The position numbers were made by a program, and so were the translations under genes. 64,000 bases of DNA from a virus (lineage: Duplodnaviria; Heunggongvirae; Uroviricota; Caudoviricetes): IMG/VR virus record IMGVR_UViG_2877948078_000003. One strand, written 5' to 3'. Shown here piece after piece: positions 1 to 32,822 of the stretch. Each line of letters opens with the position of its first letter. Position 1 is the stretch's first letter. The notes below the pieces were generated by a model. The model saw nothing but the letters and a program-made list of their open reading frames with translations. It made no database searches and had not been told where the DNA came from.

Positions 1-588
1 ATGAATACAGCTATAACTTTTTCTAACGAGTCACCAAAAGTCTTTTTCAAAGATGGTCGCTTGGTAACCACCTCTCAAGCTGTTGCCGACTACTTCGACA
101 AACAACATAAACACGTTTTAGCTAAGATTGACGCACTCGACTGCTCTCCTGAATTTACATCAGCCAACTTTTCGGCTGATGTTCAAACTGTCGAAATTGG
201 CAACTGCGCAGAACGTGAATCACGATGCTACCTGATCACAAAAGACGGCTTCATGTTCCTCGTGATGGGATTTACTGGCAAAAAAGCAGCCAGACTAAAA
301 GAAGCTTACATTGCAAAATTTAACGCAATGGAAGAAGTACTCCACAAACAACCACAAACAACCACAAACAACCACAAACAACCACCAACAGCACAAAACT
401 CCCCACCCCCAAATGATGGGTGCGCATTATTGATCCACTTCGATAAACACGGGCAGGTCGAATTCACGGAAAAAGTACCCGCCTATGCGATGGTATGCAC
501 TCTGGAACGGTTTAAATTTTATCTGGAGCAACACGGCTGGATCGTTGCCCGTAAAGAACAACTGGTAGAACGGTTGATGCGGTTGTAA
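1..588 (+). CDS. Rha-family phage regulatory protein (antirepressor-like)
   Basis: 195-aa ORF; N-terminal segment VTTSQAVADYFDKQHKHVLAKI fits the Rha-domain pattern as I remember it; C-terminal part unassigned. Confidence 0.6.
   Translation: MNTAITFSNESPKVFFKDGRLVTTSQAVADYFDKQHKHVLAKIDALDCSPEFTSANFSADVQTVEIGNCAERESRCYLITKDGFMFLVMGFTGKKAARLKEAYIAKFNAMEEVLHKQPQTTTNNHKQPPTAQNSPPPNDGCALLIHFDKHGQVEFTEKVPAYAMVCTLERFKFYLEQHGWIVARKEQLVERLMRL
342..391. repeat. 10-bp tandem repeat CCACAAACAA, four perfect copies plus one degenerate, inside the Rha-like CDS
   Basis: Read directly at 342-391; encodes the HKQPQTTTNNHKQPP linker. Confidence 0.9.
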
Positions 589-1367
589 TGATTGCAAAAC
601 CCCGGATGATCACCAGGGTTAATTTTATCGAGCGTGATTGCCGCTAATCGCCATCTCTCTGATTGAGCGTAAATCATCCTGGTTATGCTGTTCTTCCTTC
701 ATCTCACGCTGGCGTTGACAAACCTCGTCATTGCGATCGACCTGCGCCTGAACCATTGCAGTAAGCAGCTCATCCAGTTGTTGTCTTGGCAGATTGCAAA
801 ACATGTGATAACAATATGTTTACAAAAGAAAAGCATACTTTTGTGATGCTTTTTTATACCGTTTCATACATTTTTAACTGCCTGATTTTGTTAAAGTCTT
901 TTTTATTTTGCAGTGTCTTATCCCTTCCTTTATAGATCACTTCATCAAAAACAGAGAGGTCAATGTTGACGTAATTGTCACAGGCGCCAGCAATGATAGG
1001 CTCTCAATTTTAAGAGCCGTAGATAAAGAGCCAGCACGTACGTTCATTAAGGAAACGCTTCAAAATGTCTGGGAAAAAATACGGACTTCCGGAAATCTGA
1101 AAAATCATCCATATCAACAGGATGCACGAAAAATGAGAGTTCCGTCACTTCCGGAATTAACTTTTCCGTGGCACTATTTACCCGGCATAGTGTATATCTT
1201 CACAATAATGACATAATCAACGCAGTTCATGGGGGAAGTGATGGTCCCCCATCTTTTTGTCTGTTATTTCTCCCCCCTGTATGCCTGTATCTCATCTGCA
1301 CTGCTCAGCGTTTCCAGCCCCTTACCGTGCTACACTGGCGGTTCTCACCTGACTGCCGTCGTTCTCT

Positions 1368-3290
1368 TCACGATATACGCTGAAACAGCCCCACACAGTA
1401 AGGGTATATTGAACTGACCTGAAGTGGACTACAGACCCGCCATGTTCCTGGCAATGTATTACCGGTTAATGTGGCTGCTTTCTGAGAGCCCAGTTGAATG
1501 CTACATTCTCTCAGTTTACTTCCCGCAAGCACGGCACCTGCGGCATATTTTTCACTGTTACTTATACTGGCCTGAGCAAAGACAAATGCCCCAACAGCAT
1601 GCAAACCACCTGCCGGTGAGCCAGCTGGTCCCTGTGGGCCTGTTGCCCCCCGGGGACCGGGATCACCTTTATCCCCTTTAGCTCCCTGTGGCCCGGTTGC
1701 GCCGGTGGCACCTTTCTCACCCTTTGCCCCGGGAGCGCCAGTATCCCCTTTTGGTCCCTGTGGCCCGGTTGCGCCGGTGGCTCCTTTCTCACCCTTTGCC
1801 CCGGGAGCGCCAGTATCCCCCTTTGGTCCCTGAGGGCCGGGATCACCTTTATCCCCTTTTGCTCCCTGTGGCCCGGTTGCGCCGGTGGCTCCTTTCTCAC
1901 CTTTTGCCCCGGGAGCGCCAGTATCCCCCTTTGGTCCCTGAACGCCCCCCGGCCCAGCCGGACCTGCTGGCCCCGTGTCCCCTTTATCTCCTTTCGGACC
2001 GGGAACACCACCTCCTGCAGCAGCCTCTTCTGCCTTTGTTTTCGCTTCATTTGCCACATCCATTGCCGCCTTCACGGCCTTCGGCGTGGCTGCCTTTGTT
2101 TCGTCATTACTGTTAGTATCACTGCTTAACTGCACCACGCCTTTCTGCGTCGTGCTGGCATCCCGCTGGCTGACCGTATCCGGTTTGTTCTTTGTGCTGT
2201 AATCCACCCGCCAGTGGAAATACTGTGTGTCGCCGTAAACCGTACAGGTACAGACCGTGCCATTAATAAACCCCGTTGCACCGTATTCGCCAATGGTGAC
2301 CCGGACTATGGCTGCCTCATACTTCCCCATCACCTCAATGACACAGCCACCCAGATTAAGTTTTCCCGGTCCGACATCCGTGATGACCTTATTGAATCCC
2401 GCATGCAGTGATGCCTTCATCATCCAGTAAGGCTGGTCAAATGCCCCTTTGGCTTTCAGCCAGGCGACAAACTCGGTCGTGGTCCATTCACCGGCCCCCG
2501 TATGAATGTCCCGCCCGTATACTCTGGCTGCTCCCACAGTGTTCAGAAACTGCACCTTATCCGGGATATCGTCACCGTTTTTCGCTTTCTCCAGGCATCC
2601 GTCCGCTTTGCCCATTGCCGCTTTCACCGCTTTCGGGGTGGCTGCCTTCGTTTCATCATCACTGTCCGTTGCGCTGCTTAACTGCACAATTCCCTTCTGT
2701 GCCGTCGTCGCATCCGGTCCTCCCGGCTCGCCTTTTTCGCCCTTCTCTCCCCGTTCACCTTTCACACCCTGAAGCCCCTGCGGCCCCCTCTCACCACGCT
2801 CACCCTTTGGCCCCCGCTCGCCGGTATCGCCTTTTGGCCCGGGAATACCCTGTGGCCCCGTGTCTCCCTTATCCCCCTTCGGTCCCCTCGCATTCTCTGC
2901 CCGTTTCTTCGCTTCCTCTGCACTCGCCGCTGACGCTTCCGCACGTTTCAGGATTTCCGCGGCCACCGCTTCCAGCTCTGCAAGGGCTTTCGGGTAATAC
3001 TGTGCGTCCTCCAGGTCCATCAGAAATTTATTCAGCGTTCCCGGTGCAGAGTCCGCCTTCACCAGAATGTCACCCACATATGACGGCGCGTACCCTTCCG
3101 TGTTCAGCGTCACCCGGTACAGACCCGGCTCAACATCCATACTGTAACTGCCGGTTTCCCCCGGCTGACCATACGCCACCGTGGTGACAATCACCGTCTC
3201 CGTTGTGCGTCGCGCTTTCAGCTCTATCGTGCATCCCGGTACCGGCTTACCGGCCCCGTCCTTCAGCACACCAGAAATTTTAACCGTCAT
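1368..3290 (-). CDS. stf: Side tail fibre protein with collagen-like Gly-X-Y repeats, probably 3'-truncated or recombined
   Basis: N-terminus [16 protein letters not shown] and the [24 protein letters not shown] motif resemble lambda Stf; long [11 protein letters not shown] repeats; last ~70 aa look non-fibre-like and no tail fibre assembly gene follows. Confidence 0.7.
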
Positions 3291-3302
3291 ACCTTTCCAC
3301 CA

Positions 3303-3336
3303 ATAAAAAAGCCCGCAGCAGTAATGCCACGGGCTT
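3303..3336 (-). terminator. Intrinsic terminator between lom and stf
   Basis: Minus-strand hairpin AGCCCG..CGGGCT followed by TTTTTTATTGG. Confidence 0.45.
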
Positions 3337-3440: not shown

Positions 3441-4064
3441 TCAGAAACGGTATCCAATCCCAACAATAAACGCATCCGTTCGCCAGTCACCATGACCGGC
3501 CACTTCGTACGCAAGATCAACCGCCACCGTATCCGCCAGATTAAACTGAAGTCCTGCCCCCCATGCCAGCGTCAGATGACGTGCAGAATGACCATCACTG
3601 GCAGTGGTGGTCACCCTGACATCCCCCGGTGTCACTTCATCACGCCGGTAATCCTGAACACTGTCAGACCAGCGGGTGTGCGCCATCCCGGCCATGCCAT
3701 AAAGGCTGAGCTGCTCACTGACCTGCCAGACCGGCCCCGCCATCAGGCTCACATAACGGCCACGCAGACTTTCATAATGAAATGCCTTATCCCCGGTCAT
3801 CGTGGTTCTGCTCTTTTTCGCAGAGGCGTAACTCAGCGAGGCTATGCCGCCCAGATGGTCCGTGAATTCATAACGGTATTTCACGTTGATCCCTTTTAAA
3901 TCACCTGTACGGGCACCGGTACCGGACAATACCGGCACGCCGCCCGGGTGAACCTGAGCATATCCCACGGAAAATGCACCGTGTCCGCCTGCAGCCTGTG
4001 CAGGAAAAGTCATTACTGCCGGCAGGGTGGTAAAAAATAAAATGGCTCCGTATAAATACCGCAT
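3441..4064 (-). CDS. lom: Lom outer membrane protein (Ail/Lom family)
   Basis: Strong similarity to lambda Lom over the whole length (NVKYRYEF, AWGAGLQFN, GDWRTD, FIVGIGYRF); signal peptide; start at internal ATG 4064 with AAGAGG SD. Confidence 0.9.
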   Translation of the reverse strand: MRYLYGAILFFTTLPAVMTFPAQAAGGHGAFSVGYAQVHPGGVPVLSGTGARTGDLKGINVKYRYEFTDHLGGIASLSYASAKKSRTTMTGDKAFHYESLRGRYVSLMAGPVWQVSEQLSLYGMAGMAHTRWSDSVQDYRRDEVTPGDVRVTTTASDGHSARHLTLAWGAGLQFNLADTVAVDLAYEVAGHGDWRTDAFIVGIGYRF

Positions 4065-4132
4065 GATTACCTCTTTGTTTTCAGTCAATAAAAAAGGCAC
4101 CACTTCGGGTGCCCGTCCGGGTTAATAAACCG

Positions 4133-7100
4133 TCAGCTGATACTGATACCTGATGCCCCCTTTTTCATCACAAGAACCTGTACATCACTGGCAAACGTAT
4201 CCGGCGGAATATTTCCCGAATGCCGTGTGGACGTGACAGTGAATGTCAGGGTTACGTGTCCACCTCCCGCACGCATATCCACAATTCGGGCGAAAACCTG
4301 AGGTGCATCATTCGCCACGCCGTCATAAATCACTGCACCGTTCATCAGCACCTTCAGATAACACATCGAATATGTTGTTCTGCCGCTGTCGGTACGCCTG
4401 CTTCCGCGAAATGTCAGCGGAAGTACCACTATCTGGCGGTCAAACGGGTGATCATCATACACAGTGAACGTGCGCGTTCCGGAAGGCCAGTTCACACTGC
4501 CCTCATTCTGACGCGGGAAAGCGCCACTCCCGCCCTTGATAAGATCCCCGATGATGTTTCCCGCTTTCAGTGTGCCATTTATCGTGCAGTTCTCCGCTAT
4601 CACGACATTATTCAGCGTGCCCGAGTTAGCACTGATATGTCCGCTGATATCCGCATTGCGGGCCGTCAGCCTGCCCTCCGGCGTCAGGGAGAACGTCGGG
4701 GGATTGCCGGATGACGTGATACTCACCGCAAACAGTCGCTTCAGGAACACGTCGTTCATGAACAGCTGATTCCCCTGTGCCACAAACAGCGGCGTGGTGT
4801 TGCCGTTCTCCGGGGTAATCATCGCGATACGGTCCGCCTGCAGCAGAATATTGCTCAGCGTCTGGCCATCAGCATCCTCAATCCCCGCACCAATACCGGC
4901 AACATACGGAATGCCGTTTTTCGTTTTCTGCACCTTCAGCATGTACAGCGCTGCCAGCTCATCATTCGTGTCTGACTGGACCTGCTGTATCTGCTGTATG
5001 GTGGCGCTCTGGTCTTCCAGCTTTTTATCCGTGGTCGAGGTGATTTCACTCCCTTTGTCATCCACGTACTGGCGGACCTGCGCTATCTGCCTGGCATTTT
5101 CCTCCGTGCTCTGGCTGACTGTCTGTGTGATTTCACTGCTCACCCGGTCCACCTGCTGACTCACCTGCGCGATGGCCAGCGTCTGGTCCTCATTCTTTTT
5201 CGCAACCAGCTGCGTGAGGCTGTTTTCTGCCTCCCCGATTTTTCGGGTCACTTCCGCAACATCCGTCTCCAGCCGCTGGCGGATGTCTTCTTCCAGTTGC
5301 GTGACCTCAGTACGCAGGGCTGACGCATCAATACGCTCTTTCAGTGCCTTCCCCAGCAGCGCCTCATCTATCAGCCCACGGAAAATTTCCAGATACCCTT
5401 CACCATCATTGCTGGCCTGCCCGCTGGCCTCCACAAACGCAGATTTCCCCACCAGGTTGACGCTGCGCACATAAAACCAGAAATCCGTCCCCGGCCTGAT
5501 GTGCGGGCCGGAGACGCTCCACTGGCTGCCGGTACCCAGATAACGGGCTGAGGTTTCCACCTGTGCCGTGTCCGTGATGCGTTTTTCTGAGAACCAGAAT
5601 TCATACTGTACCGTCGGGTCATACACCGCAGGATGCGGGACCACCGTTATCTGAAAATAGCCCGGCGTCAGTTCAATGCTGGCCGGTGCCGCCGGTGCAT
5701 TAATCCGGAATGTGGTGGTGGCAGGTTCGCCCTGCTGGCCGTAGCTGTTTATCGCCCTGACCGTCAGGGTGTATTCCCCGAGCGGCAGGCCACTGAAACG
5801 GTGCTCCGTGTCCGCCGTGATGGCGCTGGTCACCAGGCGGCTGTTCTCACCACTGCCACTGGTCAGGCGCAGACTGAAGCGCACGCCCTTCACCACCCGC
5901 GGCGTGTCCCATTTCGCCAGCGCCAGATACTGGCCGTCTGAGGCGCTCACCTCCACCGTGAGGTGCTGCACCGCCGGCGGGATGACGCTGTTCAGTGAAC
6001 CGGAGAGCGGCTCAAAGGTGGCCCCGTTATCCACGATGGCTTCTTTTTCCGGTACGTGCTGCACTGCCGTGATGGCAAAGGTGCCGTCCGTGTTTTCCCG
6101 GATGGAAACACAGCGGAACAGGCGACGACGCAGTGACGGCAGGGAGAGTCCCCACACACCGTATGTCGCCACGCCATCCGGCAGGGCGCTGACCTGTATC
6201 CGGTCCGGGGCCAGTTGTGCAGTGATGTCCACGCGCACCGGCTTACCGCTGCCGTTAATCAGGTTCACCGTCGATGTCCCTGTCTCCGGCATGGTCACCT
6301 CACGGTCCAGCGTCAGTGTGCGGCTGGCGGCATCAATGGACAGGATGCGTCCGCCGGTCAGGGTCCCGGCGTAGTCGTTATCACAGATTTCAATGATGTC
6401 ACCGGGCGTATGCCGCAGCCCCTGTGACCCGAGCGTGAAATCCACCGTCTGCGTTTCCAGCAGTTCTGTCTTTATCACCCACAGTCCGGCACGGTGGGCC
6501 TGACCGCGGCTGGTACAGCCAAACGCGTCCATCTTCAGCAGGTTGCGCCCGTAGCGCAGGATGGCGTCCGGGTCTTCCACCAGTTCCGTGGAAGTCTGCC
6601 AGCCGTTCTGCGGGTCGGTGTAATTCACCTCCACCGCCGTGTGCCGGTCCTTCAGGGCACTGAAGCTGTAGCGGAACCCCACGCCGTTATCATCCACCAC
6701 CACATCGCTGTTGGTGTACGGCCACACCACATCCGACGGGCGGTCCTGAACGAACGTCAGCGTCTGGCCGTTCCATACCGGCATACAGCGCATCGCCGAG
6801 CAGAAATCCCCCAGGACATCCCAGACCTTACGCTGCTGTGACAGGTACGCATTGAAAGTCATCCGCGGCTCTGTGCCCCCGAAACCATCCGGGACCGTCT
6901 GGTCACAGTACTGCCCGATGGCATACAGTGCCCACTTGTCCACATCCGCCGCCCCCAGGCGTTTTCCCATCCCGTAGCGCGGGTGGGTCAGCATGTCCCA
7001 CAGGCACCAGGCCGGGTTATTGCTGTATGCCGGTTTCAGACTCCCGTCCCAGATACCGCTGTAGGTGCGTTTTTCCGGGTCATAGTTTGACGGCACCTGA

Positions 7101-7828
7101 ATGATGCGGCCGCGGATATGGTAGTTCACCACCATCTGCTGGCCACCGAACTGCTCCGCATCCACCTGCAGCCCCACAATGGCCGTGTTCGGGTAGCACT
7201 GTTTCACATCGATGATTTCGGTGTATGACGACCACAGCGTTCTGTTCTGCAGCTGGTCCGTGGTACTGTCCGCCGTCACCCTGACCACCCGGATGTTAAA
7301 GGGGCGCTCAGGGAGATTATTCAGAATCACCGACGTCAGGTACTGCGAGGTGGTCTTGCCGTTAATGGTGACATCCTTCTCCGTCACCCAGTTACCGTTA
7401 CGCTCAAGCTGAATCAGCAGGCGGACAGAAGAGGGATTACGGTCACCCTTTGAGGTGGTCTCCACCAGTGACTGCACCCCGAAGGTGACCCGCAGACGGT
7501 CAATGTTCGCTGACGTGATGGTGCGCGTCACCGGCTTTGCCTTCGTCACCTCCACACCCAGTGCGGTTTCCGCCCCGGAGGACTCAAAGCCTTCCGGCGG
7601 TGTCTGCTCCTGCTCCCCGGCACGCCAGACGGCGGTCACACCGTGTATCACGGGATTACCGTCCGTGTCCGTCAGCGGGGTTTTGTTCACCAGAATACTC
7701 TGCAGTCCCTTCACCGGGCCTTCCACCGGTCCCTCACCGATGGCATCAATCACGCTCATCATCTGCGTGGATTTGAGATTGTCCTTCGCCTCACGCGGTG
7801 TGTGCCCCTTGCCGCCCCCTTTACCCAC
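4133..7828 (-). CDS. J: Host specificity protein J (central tail fibre)
   Basis: Near-colinear with lambda gpJ from [20 protein letters not shown] to the C-terminus; start reassigned to GTG 7828 behind a GGAGAGGGGG SD; the track start at 7879 is a TTG extension. Confidence 0.95.
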
Positions 7829-29727: not shown

Positions 29728-31818
29728 ATGTATGTCATTGCAAAAGAACTGATTGGCGCGCCCGGAATGCCTGCTACAACAAAAGGTATTCGCCAGGCAT
29801 TACAACGTTACGTACAAGGGAAAAGCTGTTGTTCCCGTCGTCGCTCAGGCTCTAAAGCAACTGAATACAGCATCGACTGTTTACCTGAAGTGACGCAGCA
29901 GGCATTACGTGAACGTTATGCCCTGCAACTGATGACGCAAAAAGCCGATGAATCACCGGCTCCGGTGGTGACAAAGGCCAGACGCTCATCTGACGTGGTT
30001 GATGCGGTGGAGGCATATCGCGGATCACCACAACTGATGGTCGAACGCCTCAATGCCCTGACTGAAAACCAGCGCCAGGTGGCTGATGCACGAATCGCGA
30101 TCGTCAGCGAAGTGATGAAAGTCGCGCAACAACCCGGTTTCAGCTGCGCGAAGGCTATCCGGTTTATCGTTGACAACCTGGCACGTTCACAGCTGGACGA
30201 GCGCATTGTGGCAATGGTTGAGACGGCGAACGCCAAAAAGGGAAACAGCCGTGCGTTGAGTGAAATCACGCTGAAGCGATGGATTGCGGCCTTTAACAAG
30301 GCACAGAACGCCGCTGAACGCCTGCTTTTACTGGCACCGGGTAAACGCCAGGAAATAAAAGCCGAAGATATTAACTGGCTGCCCGAATTTCTGGCGCAGT
30401 ATCGCCAGTCAAACGGCCGACCAATGACCGAGGCTTACGAGGATTTTGTTGCTGAATGGCAGCACCGGCACGCTGATGAGCCTTATATGCTCGATATCAT
30501 GCCCTCTTATGACACCATTCGCCGCGCAATGAAGAAACTGCCGGAAGTGGTGAAACAAAAAGGCCGGGTGACAGGCAGTGAATACCGTCAGCTTGAGGGA
30601 TTCACGCGCCGCGACTGGTCCAGAATGCCGGTGAATTATGTCTGGATTGGTGACGGTCACGGCATGAAGATGAAATGCAGGCACCCGGTTCACGGGCGGC
30701 CATTTGCACCGGAAGTGACCTTTGTTATCGACGGTGGCACGCGCTTTGTGGTGGGCTGGAGCCTTGACCTGGCTGAAAATGTTTTCGCCGTAGCCGGTGC
30801 CATACAGCACGGTATTCGCCATCACGGCAAACCGTTTCTGTATTACTCGGATAACGGTTCGGGGGAAACCGCCGACATCCTGGATAAGGAGGTTGTGGGG
30901 ATCCTGCCGCGCCTGGGGATTAATCACCCGACAGGGATTGCCGGTAATCCGCAGGGGCGAGGCATTATCGAACGGCTTAACCGCACATTACCGATGCGCA
31001 TAGCCCGTAAATACCGCACCTATTTCGGGAAAGGTGCAGATCGCGAGACGTTACGCAAAACCAACCGCGATTTACGCTCGGCATTCACTGCCCTGCAACA
31101 GGACAAACGGCTGAACGCCCGGCAGCAGTCAGCGATGCGTGATTTACCGTCCTGGCCTGAACTGATTGATGCCATCCGTGATGGTGTCGAGTGGTACAAC
31201 AACCGGCCGCACAGCGGATTGCCGGTGAAACCGAACGGTAAGCATTACAGCCCGGCGGAATACAGGAAAAAACGCCTGGCAGAAGAGGACACGGAAATTG
31301 AATGGCTGTCCGATGTTGAGCTGCGGGATATGTTCCGGCCGATGGTGGAACGCCCGGTAAGACGCTGTGAAATACGCTGGCTGAATAATATTTACTACGC
31401 GCCCGAGCTGCGTGATGAGCATGGCCGTAAGGTGCTTATCAGCTATGACATTCATGATGCCGAACGAATTACCGTGCGTCGCCTGGATGGCAGCGTGATT
31501 TGCGAGGCGGTATGGGACGGCAATAAACGCGAAGCCTTCCCGGTCAGCGCGGAATACTACAAACAGCAGCAACGCCTTAAAGGCATGCGTAAACGCGCAG
31601 AGGAAAAAATCCGTGATGCCGAGGATGAGGTGGTCAACGTGCTGGAGCACAAGCCGCAAGAGCCCTGGCTGGAAAACATCTATCGCCCGGTAGGTAATAC
31701 GGTGGCCGTTCAGCAACCTGCCGTTGATGATGAGCCTGATGAAGAATACGAGCGTAATTTCCAGCGGGGATTGCAGTTGCTCGAAGCGAAATTAAAAGAA
31801 AATGACCCGCTGGCCTGA
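29728..31818 (+). CDS. A: Mu-type DDE transposase A
   Basis: 696 aa; position after ner; overall resemblance to MuA. Confidence 0.85.
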   Translation: MYVIAKELIGAPGMPATTKGIRQALQRYVQGKSCCSRRRSGSKATEYSIDCLPEVTQQALRERYALQLMTQKADESPAPVVTKARRSSDVVDAVEAYRGSPQLMVERLNALTENQRQVADARIAIVSEVMKVAQQPGFSCAKAIRFIVDNLARSQLDERIVAMVETANAKKGNSRALSEITLKRWIAAFNKAQNAAERLLLLAPGKRQEIKAEDINWLPEFLAQYRQSNGRPMTEAYEDFVAEWQHRHADEPYMLDIMPSYDTIRRAMKKLPEVVKQKGRVTGSEYRQLEGFTRRDWSRMPVNYVWIGDGHGMKMKCRHPVHGRPFAPEVTFVIDGGTRFVVGWSLDLAENVFAVAGAIQHGIRHHGKPFLYYSDNGSGETADILDKEVVGILPRLGINHPTGIAGNPQGRGIIERLNRTLPMRIARKYRTYFGKGADRETLRKTNRDLRSAFTALQQDKRLNARQQSAMRDLPSWPELIDAIRDGVEWYNNRPHSGLPVKPNGKHYSPAEYRKKRLAEEDTEIEWLSDVELRDMFRPMVERPVRRCEIRWLNNIYYAPELRDEHGRKVLISYDIHDAERITVRRLDGSVICEAVWDGNKREAFPVSAEYYKQQQRLKGMRKRAEEKIRDAEDEVVNVLEHKPQEPWLENIYRPVGNTVAVQQPAVDDEPDEEYERNFQRGLQLLEAKLKENDPLA

Positions 31819-31889: not shown

Positions 31890-32822
31890 ATGACTGATAT
31901 TAACGATGTAATCAAGACCATTGATGAACTTATTGATGGCGGCGTACTGACGCAGTATGCCATCGCCAGAGAGGCGGGAATTTCCGACGGCACATTATCG
32001 GCTTTCCGTAAGGGAAAATATAAAGGCGATAACGCTGCTGTGGCTGCTTCCCTGCGCTCCTGGTATGAGAACTGGAATAAACAAAGCGCACTGCCGGAAC
32101 CGCCGCAGTTTGTGGAAACGCAGACAGTCCAGGAGCTGCGCGCACTGTTTCAGGCGGTTCGTCTGATGGGCTGTATTAACGTTATTGTGGGCGTACCGGG
32201 TGTGGGTAAAACGGCCACCGCCCGTAATTACTGCCAGGAGCAACCAAACACCTGGATGATCACCCTGTCTCCCGCGCATTCCAGCGTCACGGAGTGTCTG
32301 CTGGAGCTGGCCGATGCGCTGGGGATTGATTACACCCGCGCGAACAAAGGGGCATTATCCCGCGCCATCCGCCGTCGCCTGATGGGAACGCGCGGACTGG
32401 TGATTGTGGATGAGGCGGATCATCTTGGTATTGACGGTCTGGAGCAACTCCGGGCAATTCAGGACGCCACGGGGATCGGGATGGTGCTTATTGGTAACCC
32501 GCGCGGACTGTTTAAAGGTGGACGCCGCGCCTTTGATGATTTATCGCGCCTGTTCAGCCGTCTTGCCCGTACAAAACAACTTCGCAGGGCTAAAAAGGCG
32601 GATGTGCTGGCTATTGCCAGGGCATGGGGTATCAGTGGTGAGGCCGAGCTGGCTGTCATGCAGGCTATTGCTGAAAAACCGGGAGCATTACGTGTTCTGA
32701 CACATACGCTTAACCAGGCGTGGCTCACAGCCAGCGGTGAAGGCGCGGCGCTGACAGAAAAACATATTAATGCGGCCTTTAAAGAGGTTTACACCAACCC
32801 TGAATTACTCTCGCAGGTGTGA
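31890..32822 (+). CDS. B: Mu B-like AAA+ ATPase (transposition target DNA activator)
   Basis: Walker A GVPGVGKT, Walker B VIVDEADH; directly after the transposase. Confidence 0.85.
   Translation: MTDINDVIKTIDELIDGGVLTQYAIAREAGISDGTLSAFRKGKYKGDNAAVAASLRSWYENWNKQSALPEPPQFVETQTVQELRALFQAVRLMGCINVIVGVPGVGKTATARNYCQEQPNTWMITLSPAHSSVTECLLELADALGIDYTRANKGALSRAIRRRLMGTRGLVIVDEADHLGIDGLEQLRAIQDATGIGMVLIGNPRGLFKGGRRAFDDLSRLFSRLARTKQLRRAKKADVLAIARAWGISGEAELAVMQAIAEKPGALRVLTHTLNQAWLTASGEGAALTEKHINAAFKEVYTNPELLSQV

Follow-up and report, generated by a model that had tools for sequence, protein, structure and literature searches.

The EHEC prophage collagen-like (EPcl) family is recognized by a PfN domain and one or more (Gly-X-Y)n domains, and its EPclC class by two collagen domains parted by Pf2, usually with no PCoil (PMC3368898). 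Recombinant EPclA made in a laboratory strain of E. coli trimerises, the trimer and its collagen having been shown by CD, SEC-MALS or EM of the recombinant protein, and its small C-terminal PfC domain brings about trimerisation and re-nucleates the collagen helix (PMC3368898). The prototype of EPclC, the ORF-401-like protein of P-EibA (AAF63232; Ghosh et al. 2012, PMC3368898), is encoded after J and lom in a lambdoid prophage. The same position is held by Stf of phage lambda, which carries a PfN domain and Pf2 repeats and whose presumed role is that of an accessory fibre allowing faster adsorption or wider receptor use (PMC3368898). In Alteromonas phage V22 (gp26/gp27) a DUF4376 gene directly follows the fibre gene, and experiments support its product as the chaperone of that fibre (PMC7289586, PMC10579305).

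Here we describe a related locus in a 64,000-nt stretch of Caudoviricetes DNA (IMG/VR record IMGVR_UViG_2877948078_000003; hereafter the window). Its features, listed along the direction of fibre transcription, are as follows.

4133-7828, minus strand: J, tail tip or host specificity protein (open reading frame; gpJ annotation in a near-identical record)
3441-4103, minus strand: lom, Ail/Lom outer-membrane protein, directly upstream of the fibre gene (PF06316, E 9e-50)
1368-3290, minus strand: side tail fibre gene, predicted EPclC-type collagen-like prophage fibre, 640 aa, stop codon at 1368-1370 (open reading frame list, Pfam, PHROG)
2889-3290, minus strand: PfN, prophage tail fibre N-terminal domain, aa 1-134 (PF08400)
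2715-2888, minus strand: collagen block 1, 19 Gly-X-Y triplets, aa 136-192, ending with a GEPGGP interruption
2583-2705, minus strand: Pf2 repeat 1 (QKGIVQLSS...; PF03406), direct repeat copy at 2612-2715
2157-2582, minus strand: middle domain, aa ~237-378, resembling a portion of the tail fibres of P2 (H), PSP3 and Mu (tblastn)
2031-2156, minus strand: Pf2 repeat 2 (QKGVVQLSS...; PF03406), aa 379-420, direct repeat copy at 2060-2163
1614-2009, minus strand: collagen block 2, 44 Gly-X-Y triplets, aa 428-559
1371-1613, minus strand: C-terminal tip domain (GLHAVGAF...AGSKL...PGTWR...GLFQRIS), 81 aa (HMMER, profile, AF2, dN/dS)
1319-1367, minus strand: spacer between fibre stop and chaperone stump, 49 nt; the stump starts 45-49 nt past the stop
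1264-1323, minus strand: remnant of a DUF4376 gene for a tail-fibre chaperone, comprising its final 17 codons (LETLSSADEIQAYRGEK-stop) and carrying a 9-nt deletion
959-1075, plus strand: DinI-like gene fragment, both ends missing (RefSeq annotation of a 99.8% identical record; weak PF06183 match)
625-777, minus strand: second DUF4376 stump, of a different lineage, C-terminal ~50 codons (RefSeq annotation)

The fibre is one intact 640-aa open reading frame on the minus strand, in which PfN, collagen 1, Pf2, a P2-H-like domain, Pf2, collagen 2 and an 81-aa tip follow one another. Pfam matched PF08400 over its full length (fibre aa 1-134 to profile positions 1-134, E 1.5e-41), along with two copies each of PF01391 and PF03406; the protein falls in PHROG 366, tail fiber (E 6e-126), and a RefSeq CDS that matches the gene at 99.8% identity bears the name 'prophage tail fiber N-terminal domain-containing protein'. 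Amino acids 193-370 share 50% identity with the P2 and PSP3 tail fibre genes, and the Stf-like fibre matches of the whole protein were restricted to aa 1-370 (tblastn). The fibre sequence has no long alanine-rich coil between PfN and collagen 1, and no match to PF06820 (PfC) was found with Pfam. With J and lom directly upstream and tail, head and terminase genes farther on, the gene sits in a lambdoid prophage tail module. In the window a Mu-like prophage splits the carrier prophage, of which strain 2013C-3181 (NZ_CP027312.1), for example, has an uninterrupted copy; another tfa-like gene lies at 61431-61703. Judged by its sequence, the gene encodes a side tail fibre of an ordinary kind for a lambda-like E. 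coli prophage, full-length and with collagen domains; its PfN, two collagen domains, non-PfC prototype-like C-terminus and lambdoid tail module place it in the EPcl family, closest to the EPclC architecture.

The window fibre and ORF-401 of P-EibA are 89.6% identical across the PfN region (first 154 aa), each has two collagen domains parted by Pf2 and lacks an alanine-rich PCoil, and each ends in a C-terminal domain of the same family (AVGSF...PGTWR...LFQRI in ORF-401). The window protein, unlike ORF-401, contains an extra P2-H-like domain and a second Pf2 repeat, and its tip is shorter (81 versus ~100 aa, with 39% identity over the aligned C-terminal segment). P-EibA moreover keeps a DUF4376 chaperone gene, ORF-191A, 13 nt downstream of the fibre, whereas the window retains just a 17-codon stump. 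Lambda Stf lacks collagen, differs in its distal half and needs the downstream tfa, in contrast to the collagen shaft, unrelated tip and missing tfa of the window. The closest intact relative is the fibre of Stx phage 1720a-02 (KF030445), which shares 97% protein identity with window aa 1-411 and 93% DNA identity over window positions 1882-3318. This homology ends inside collagen block 2, at ~1882, beyond which the distal collagen block of 1720a-02 is shorter than that of the window and is followed by an unrelated tip (...SYRPLQVTFDGSQWRTVSVGEYVSSGASGFEYFPL) and an intact 223-aa Tfa-N/DUF4376 gene; the DNA after that chaperone-like gene is again 92% identical to the window (1076-1318).

An earlier sequence-only reading had described the gene as a collagen-repeat Stf-like fibre with an internal duplication, and both Pfam and repeat analysis bear this out: the duplicated QKG(I/V) module is real, with 104 nt at 80% identity (2060-2163 versus 2612-2715). 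The same reading took both collagen blocks to be built of near-identical DNA repeats. There are indeed two Gly-X-Y runs, of 19 triplets (nt 2715-2885) and 44 triplets (nt 1614-2009), but strong tandem DNA repeats in the fibre gene are confined to the distal block, at 1670-1941, where TRF reported periods of 72 nt (93% matches) and 108 nt (97% matches) with scores of 300-386. In the proximal block (2700-2900) TRF detected no tandem repeat at a score of 30 or more, and a repeat search gave 62-74% matches in 9-nt phase.

The last ~70 codons had been thought unlike a receptor-binding tip, and the fibre likely truncated; neither idea survived comparison with other fibres. A HMMER search of 1.8 billion representatives recovered homologues of the tip that were all at the protein C-terminus, mostly after collagen where examined, and a profile search yielded 444 members of the family, whose pattern is VGxF...AGSxL...GTWR...LFQRIS-stop. 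In alignments of 7 and 114 sequences the motifs VG(S/T/A)(F/Y), AGSxL, GTWR and L(F/W)xRI(S/A/V)-stop form invariant or near-invariant columns, VG, GTWR and L..RI being invariant in the homologous tips of full-length fibres, and every homologue ends within 1-2 residues of the terminal motif. Homologous tips cap a 415-aa PfN-coil-collagen fibre, Citrobacter prophage fibres of 513-670 aa and P-EibA ORF-401 (hhalign probability of the ORF-401 tip against the family profile 91.7%, E 7.6e-7). Among PDB sequences, the profile matched residues 849-961 of the 962-residue gp47 of Pseudomonas phage Pa193 (PDB 9B45 sequence; E 9.9e-9), a Pbunavirus (PB1-like) fibre whose last ~110 residues include VGSY, GTWRCMG and LFQRV-stop. 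Gp47 belongs to a myovirus baseplate, its shaft is a bead-like beta structure and, unlike the window protein, it has neither collagen nor PfN; its structure models residues 1-340, and its tip is without an experimental structure (PMC11456595). Because the fibre ends in a small conserved tip domain common to other phage tail fibres, it is not truncated, and full-length fibres with such an ending are the very disproof that the earlier reading had named for itself.

AlphaFold run on the last 129 aa as a single sequence gave no informative model (pLDDT 45.6), and one based on an alignment was used instead. The tip was modelled by AF2 with the alignment as an all-beta fold (pLDDT 84, pTM 0.73), predicted to be a small beta-sandwich, and Foldseek of the model in BFVD returned tail fibre proteins of Pseudomonas, Aeromonas, Sinorhizobium and other phages, so that the window tip and predicted tail fibre tips share a compact beta fold. 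We found no usable model of the tip in Pfam, NCBIfam or PHROGs (best match phrog_17472, E 0.011). No match to the tip was obtained by tblastn in 50,697 phage records, nor any kinship of the distal half with lambda Stf or T4 gp37-type tips; the P-EibA-type tip was present in just 2 phage records. The exact window-type 3' end occurs in 35 complete E. coli genomes. Megablast of complete E. coli genomes gave no match to the Citrobacter-type tip or to that of another E. coli copy, L035; a scan of genome contigs was dominated by the collagen pattern GPQGPAG, with just two Citrobacter loci confirmed. By these comparisons the 81-aa tip is a short variant of a widespread, unnamed family of tail-fibre tips.

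The fibre frame is the sole open frame across 1371-1622. Between the window tip and the L035 copy, which is 73% identical and sits on a different shaft, dN/dS is 0.11 and 41 of 68 differences fall at third codon positions, homology ending ~5 nt beyond the stop codon. On this evidence the last ~80 codons are under purifying selection, and the tip is a conserved, selected domain and not frameshift or deletion debris. Eleven window-type copies, at three insertion sites (ompW, tRNA-Ser/ykgJ and yecD), have intact fibre reading frames of 616-664 aa and show two variable sites in the tip, both synonymous; with L035 included, all 12 short-tip copies have intact fibre reading frames and occupy four insertion sites. 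The window-type copies, at least 99% alike, are too similar to show selection continuing after loss of the chaperone, and the dN/dS signal could predate that loss.

The expectation that no tail fibre assembly gene follows the fibre proved correct, as no intact tfa (Caudo_TAP or DUF4376) was found within 1.3 kb downstream and stumps alone remain. The one at 1264-1323 has 92% identity to the 3' end and downstream DNA of the 1720a-02 chaperone-like gene and 93% identity to the corresponding stretch of a complete DUF4376 gene of NZ_AP027256.1, and was also recovered by tblastn. Hundreds of E. coli genomes carry an intact DUF4376 gene whose 3' end is 85-90% identical to the stump at 625-777, which also has 40% identity to a Citrobacter-type chaperone (tblastn). 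The 49-nt spacer has no similarity to chaperone gene starts or to any of the loci compared. We considered it as a chaperone 5' remnant and rejected this, there being no significant DNA similarity and an eight-residue resemblance (VRTASVAR to VRGAVYTR) that is too weak. Likewise, 1324-1640 was rejected as a chaperone or tip read in another frame, because the five other frames are stop-rich and nothing matches them. V22 and its host are unrelated to the window, the likeness lying in the class of chaperone gene, which is that of the stumps and of the neighbours of longer tips.

Alignment with 1720a-02 located the breakpoints that the sequence-only reading had proposed to look for, downstream at ~1318-1323 and upstream within the collagen-coding repeats, near 1880. 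There is a recombination or deletion scar just downstream of the fibre; its earlier placement at 1400-1600 falls inside conserved tip coding sequence and does not hold. Of the supposed loss of distal fibre and chaperone, the chaperone was lost, down to the 17-codon stump, but the distal tip was exchanged, not deleted. The presence of a chaperone gene also tracks tip length. A DUF4376 or Caudo_TAP gene lies 12-13 nt downstream of the long-variant tips in all 28 loci examined, and in none of 12 copies of the short-variant E. coli tip, the window included. Since every longer-tip relative keeps a chaperone gene, the tip family as a whole looks chaperone-dependent. The short E. coli knob lacks two loops found in the chaperone-linked forms.

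We consider it probable that the locus encodes a complete modular side tail fibre with a selected tip, whose distal cassette was exchanged and whose cis DUF4376 chaperone was lost. The distal cassette (collagen 2 plus tip) is not that of the closest intact phage: one crossover is located within the collagen repeats, and an illegitimate junction cuts what was the 3' end of the chaperone gene, with loss of the cis-encoded DUF4376 chaperone. PfN would anchor the trimer to the tail tip by analogy with lambda Stf. The shaft would be made of the middle domain, the Pf2 repeats and both collagen triple helices. The C-terminal beta-sandwich knob may register the three chains, nucleate the collagen helix from its C-terminal end and carry the receptor-binding loops. 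Most likely, the short knob would fold without a dedicated cis chaperone or borrow one from a co-resident prophage. A more tentative suggestion is that the two-loop-deleted 81-aa GTWR tip could be a self-folding knob for chaperone-independent trimerisation and receptor binding.

That the fibre is truncated, its last ~70-80 codons being out of frame or junction-derived after deletion of the true receptor-binding tip, is highly improbable. Such an event would fit the different tip and the chaperone gene of 1720a-02, the stump just downstream in the window and the absence of a Pfam, NCBIfam or strong PHROG family for the tip, but it is at odds with the many full-length fibres whose extreme C-terminus is a tip homologue bearing the invariant VG, GTWR and L..RI, with the match to a genuine phage tail fibre among PDB sequences, with the confident predicted fold, with the strong purifying selection in the fibre frame and with the stop-rich state of the five other frames. 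The N-terminus of the protein, which is not signal peptide-like, its full PfN, Pf2 repeats and P2-H-like domain, all typical of tail fibres, and the occurrence of the tip family on tail fibres of lytic phages make it equally hard to credit that the product is no virion component but a prophage-borne collagen-like bacterial surface protein or adhesin (a moron), comparable to streptococcal Scl or Legionella Lcl, even though the gene lies in a prophage region of lom and other lysogenic-conversion genes. NCBIfam collagen-like adhesin models did match below threshold (130 bits against cut-offs of 325-500); these matches were rejected because they are driven by the Gly-X-Y repeats and far below the cut-offs.

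A less remote alternative, though one we still hold to be unlikely, accepts an intact reading frame and a genuine tip and supposes that the protein is functionally dead, unable to trimerise without its cognate chaperone and thus a recently orphaned relic in decaying prophages. The chaperone gene kept directly downstream in 28 of 28 long-variant loci speaks for this, as does the stump, which marks an earlier chaperone at the window locus. Decay is also evident farther downstream, in the DinI fragment and the second DUF4376 stump; some copies of the fibre adjoin a frameshifted J or Rha gene, the window prophage is split by the Mu-like insertion, and the tip was not found in sequenced phage isolates. 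However, the reading frame is intact in 11 of 11 copies despite highly recombinogenic repeats, the two tip polymorphisms are both synonymous, and one junction has spread to three insertion sites. The independent, 27%-diverged short-tip copy of L035, on another shaft (dN/dS 0.11), has neither a chaperone gene nor any stump. In addition, O157 EPclA fibres fold without a co-expressed chaperone (PMC3368898), and many other tfa-like genes in STEC genomes, the one at 61431-61703 in the window among them, could act in trans.

Under the reading that we favour, of a complete fibre with an exchanged tip, the gene is to be read as a complete predicted receptor-binding fibre and not as a pseudogene, and the locus would record the swapping of a distal fibre cassette through one crossover in collagen repeats and one illegitimate junction in a chaperone gene. 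The C-terminal region of EPclC, left undefined by Ghosh et al., now finds a place in a widespread family of tail-fibre tips. Fibres of therapeutic Pseudomonas Pbunaviruses end in tips of this family, for which there is neither a Pfam model nor a solved structure. In PE1, a phage related to Pa193, the fibre mutation T896I, which lies in a C-terminal loop and may fall in the tip-homologous domain, has been linked to better LPS recognition (PMC12635225), an indirect sign that the tip may bind a host receptor. That long tips come with a chaperone gene and short tips do not provides a testable handle on chaperone dependence. If the short tip does fold by itself, it would be an example from nature of a fibre tip that has become free of its chaperone, and a compact foldon-like cap for collagen triple helices that could be moved between shafts by recombination of Gly-X-Y repeats. 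Collagen block 2 varies in length among strains, and this is the sole difference among the fibres of the 11 copies.

The fibre gene, encoding a Stf-like side tail fibre, lies within the tail module of a lambda-like prophage inserted at ompW, adjoining yciE and trpA, and sits directly downstream of J and lom. Over its first 4.2 kb the window matches E. coli 2013C-3181 at 99.8% identity, and the gene there carries the annotation 'prophage tail fiber N-terminal domain-containing protein'. The product matches PHROG 366 'tail fiber protein' (E 6e-126), Pfam identifies a prophage tail fibre N-terminal domain (PfN), two collagen regions and two Phage_fiber_2 (Pf2) repeats, and residues 193-370 share ~50% identity with a portion of the tail fibres of P2, PSP3 and Mu. 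The genes and the fibre's domains are as follows:

4133-7828: J, upstream of the fibre gene
3441-4103: lom, upstream of the fibre gene
1368-3290, minus strand: fibre gene, a single ORF of 640 aa
aa 1-134: PfN
aa 136-192: collagen 1, 19 triplets
between collagen 1 and the P2-H-like domain: first Pf2 repeat
between the two Pf2 repeats: P2-H-like domain
between the P2-H-like domain and collagen 2: second Pf2 repeat
aa 428-559: collagen 2, 44 triplets
after collagen 2: C-terminal segment (the tip), 81 aa

The fibre is not truncated, nor has its distal tip been removed, as the sequence-only reading had supposed. Across 1300-1680 the fibre frame alone is open, the five other frames being full of stop codons. 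Searched exhaustively with HMMER, the last 96 aa of the fibre brought up, besides near-identical E. coli proteins, distant homologues, among them a 415-aa PfN-coil-collagen fibre. The match reaches the final residue of every one of these homologues, and it comes after collagen triplets in the majority of those examined. Full-length fibres with the same C-terminal sequence, which the sequence-only reading had itself named as its refutation, do exist. The alignment is invariant at the VG, G, L, GTWR and L..RI positions, and a profile of the family recovered 444 proteins with the consensus ...GAVGTYAF...AGSxL...LSGTWRCMG...TLWLRIS-stop. AlphaFold, given a 114-sequence alignment, modelled the tip as a confident all-beta domain (pLDDT 84, pTM 0.73). 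When this model was compared by Foldseek with predicted viral structures, it matched tail fibre proteins from many unrelated phages (probability 1.00, query-normalised TM-score 0.55-0.74).

In E. coli the short tip has a second copy, at locus L035, which is carried on another shaft (PfN, then an alanine-rich coil and collagen) where a prophage adjoining ydfJ ends. This copy shares 73% DNA identity with the window tip, with a dN/dS of 0.11 and 41 of the 68 differences at third codon positions, and the homology stops ~5 nt past the stop codon. The 3' end of the window fibre is present in 35 of 5,426 complete E. coli genomes. Among 11 window-type copies, at three insertion sites (ompW, tRNA-Ser/ykgJ and yecD), the ORF is always intact (616-664 aa), all length variation falls in collagen block 2, and the tip varies at two sites, synonymously in each case.

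The fibre belongs to the EHEC prophage collagen-like proteins and fits the EPclC class (Ghosh et al. 2012): it has PfN and two collagen domains with Pf2 between them, lacks a PCoil, and is unrelated to PfC at its C-terminus. What sets it apart from the EPclC prototype is an inserted P2-H-like domain with a second Pf2 repeat, a tip of the short form, and the loss of the chaperone gene from its locus. It may be likened to a Stf-type accessory fibre, yet it departs from lambda Stf/Tfa in lacking tfa and in having an unrelated distal half. RefSeq already contains the fibre proteins, and the family and chaperone class are known too; what the curated libraries lack is the tip domain. The tip family consists mostly of metagenomic proteins (P0012, P0027-P0126) of ~130-175 aa that have no Pfam domain, carry a conserved N-terminal motif, DNPxAIAxGxxGAP, and are without collagen or fibre shaft.

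What had been observed of the gene's internal repeats was largely correct, the proximal block excepted. TRF detected strong DNA tandem repeats in the distal collagen block (1670-1941; 72-nt and 108-nt periods, 93-97% matches, scores 300-386), whereas neither TRF nor a repeat search found near-identical DNA repeats in the collagen-coding proximal block (~2715-2888). The duplicated QKG(I/V)VQLSS module is real, a 104-nt direct repeat (2060-2163 versus 2612-2715, 80% identity) whose copies correspond to the two Pf2 repeats. Comparison of the window with ten loci (L001, L002, L005, L007-L009, L038-L041) revealed collagen 2 (1614-2009) to be length-polymorphic, giving fibres of 616, 619, 640, 643, 649, 652 or 664 aa; changes are always of whole triplets, and the tip protein sequence is invariant in the same strains. 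The tandem repeats are an in-frame length-variation device and probably also a crossover site for cassette exchange.

Stx phage 1720a-02 is the closest intact relative. Its fibre is 97% identical over aa 1-411 (DNA 93% over window 1882-3318), and beyond that point the collagen block is shorter and the tip unrelated. The 223-aa gene that follows is Tfa-like at its N-terminus and has DUF4376 at its C-terminus; window 1076-1318 is 92% identical to the last ~17 codons of this gene and the DNA downstream (window LETLSSADEIQAYRGEK-stop, 1720a-02 LEKLTSADEILAYRVGWAQE-stop). A related ompW prophage stands in the same relationship to the window. The window therefore carries a replaced distal cassette. 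It comprises some of collagen 2, the tip, and 49 nt with no match among chaperone-gene starts or the loci compared; one crossover falls inside the collagen repeats, and an illegitimate junction falls at ~1318-1323, inside the former chaperone gene. The suspected recombination junction with chaperone loss is borne out, but not its placement at 1400-1600. No intact tail fibre assembly gene was found after the fibre gene, as had been noted, only stumps:

1264-1323: DUF4376 3' end (chaperone-gene stump)
959-1075: DinI fragment, downstream of the fibre gene
625-777: second DUF4376 stump, 3' end only, from another lineage

The 0.8 kb between the fibre and Rha genes (589-1367) is a mosaic of three gene stumps, each matching a different prophage lineage, and records repeated earlier exchanges at the prophage end.

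In Alteromonas phage V22, experiments support a role as fibre chaperones for DUF4376 proteins whose genes come immediately behind fibre genes (PMC7289586, PMC10579305). Long tips (~100 aa; 41-46% identity to the window tip for most, 35% for one locus) end fibres in 25 IMG/VR loci and two Citrobacter genomes, and in all of these a 194-aa DUF4376 or 136-aa Caudo_TAP gene starts 12-13 nt past the fibre stop. Chaperone genes beside long tips include:

L012, 5318-5902: chaperone gene beside a long tip
L014, 5328-5738: chaperone gene beside a long tip
L042, 2661-3236: chaperone gene beside a long tip

The DUF4376 and Caudo_TAP chaperones have an N-terminal module in common, M(N/E)I(E/Q).I.AP.WAN...TAI(N/D)C, and differ in their C-terminal halves. 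This ~45-aa module tracks the tip family with either C-terminal half, which suggests a modular chaperone whose N-terminal part may be specific to the tip. The tip of the EPclC prototype, P-EibA ORF-401, likewise belongs to the family (hhalign probability 91.7%), and ORF-191A, which follows ORF-401, is 47% identical to the Citrobacter-type chaperone.

The chaperone gene is kept in 28 of 28 long-tip loci and in none of 12 short-tip copies, so either the short form no longer needs a chaperone in cis or these fibres are orphaned. We favour, as the somewhat likelier case, a functional window-type fibre, given the intact ORFs across window-type copies, their spread over several insertion sites, the strong selection signal in the independent, chaperone-less L035 lineage, and the precedent of EPclA and its small PfC knob, which trimerise when expressed alone in a laboratory strain of E. 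coli (PMC3368898). The proposal that the short tip is a knob naturally independent of a chaperone is tentative, and we consider it rather doubtful. An orphaned relic is likewise less likely than not, though it would accord with the absence of the tip from sequenced phage isolates, with E. coli copies too alike to reveal selection after chaperone loss, and with the splitting of the carrier prophage by a Mu-like prophage from ~28.5 kb onward.

This transposable prophage (~28,507 to at least 52,000) encodes a Mu-type transposase, a MuB-like ATPase, a DUF935 portal and a tail sheath, and includes these ORFs:

29728-31818, plus strand: Mu-like prophage ORF
31890-32822, plus strand: Mu-like prophage ORF

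It begins where collinearity with the reference lambdoid prophage ends and appears to interrupt the lambdoid prophage of the window close to that prophage's SASA/NanS-p esterase gene; if so, the late genes, including the fibre gene, would be cut off from Q and the early region. Within it, 61431-61703 (plus strand) encodes a Tfa-like N-terminal domain with 34% identity to the N-terminus of the 1720a-02 chaperone-like protein, possibly a candidate trans-acting fibre chaperone in the same cell. Beyond the stumps, the Rha-family gene (1-588, plus strand) contains a short tandem repeat of ACAACCACAAACA-like units at 330-400, encoding HKQPQTTTNNHKQP... in the regulator's linker, possibly another length-variable stretch.
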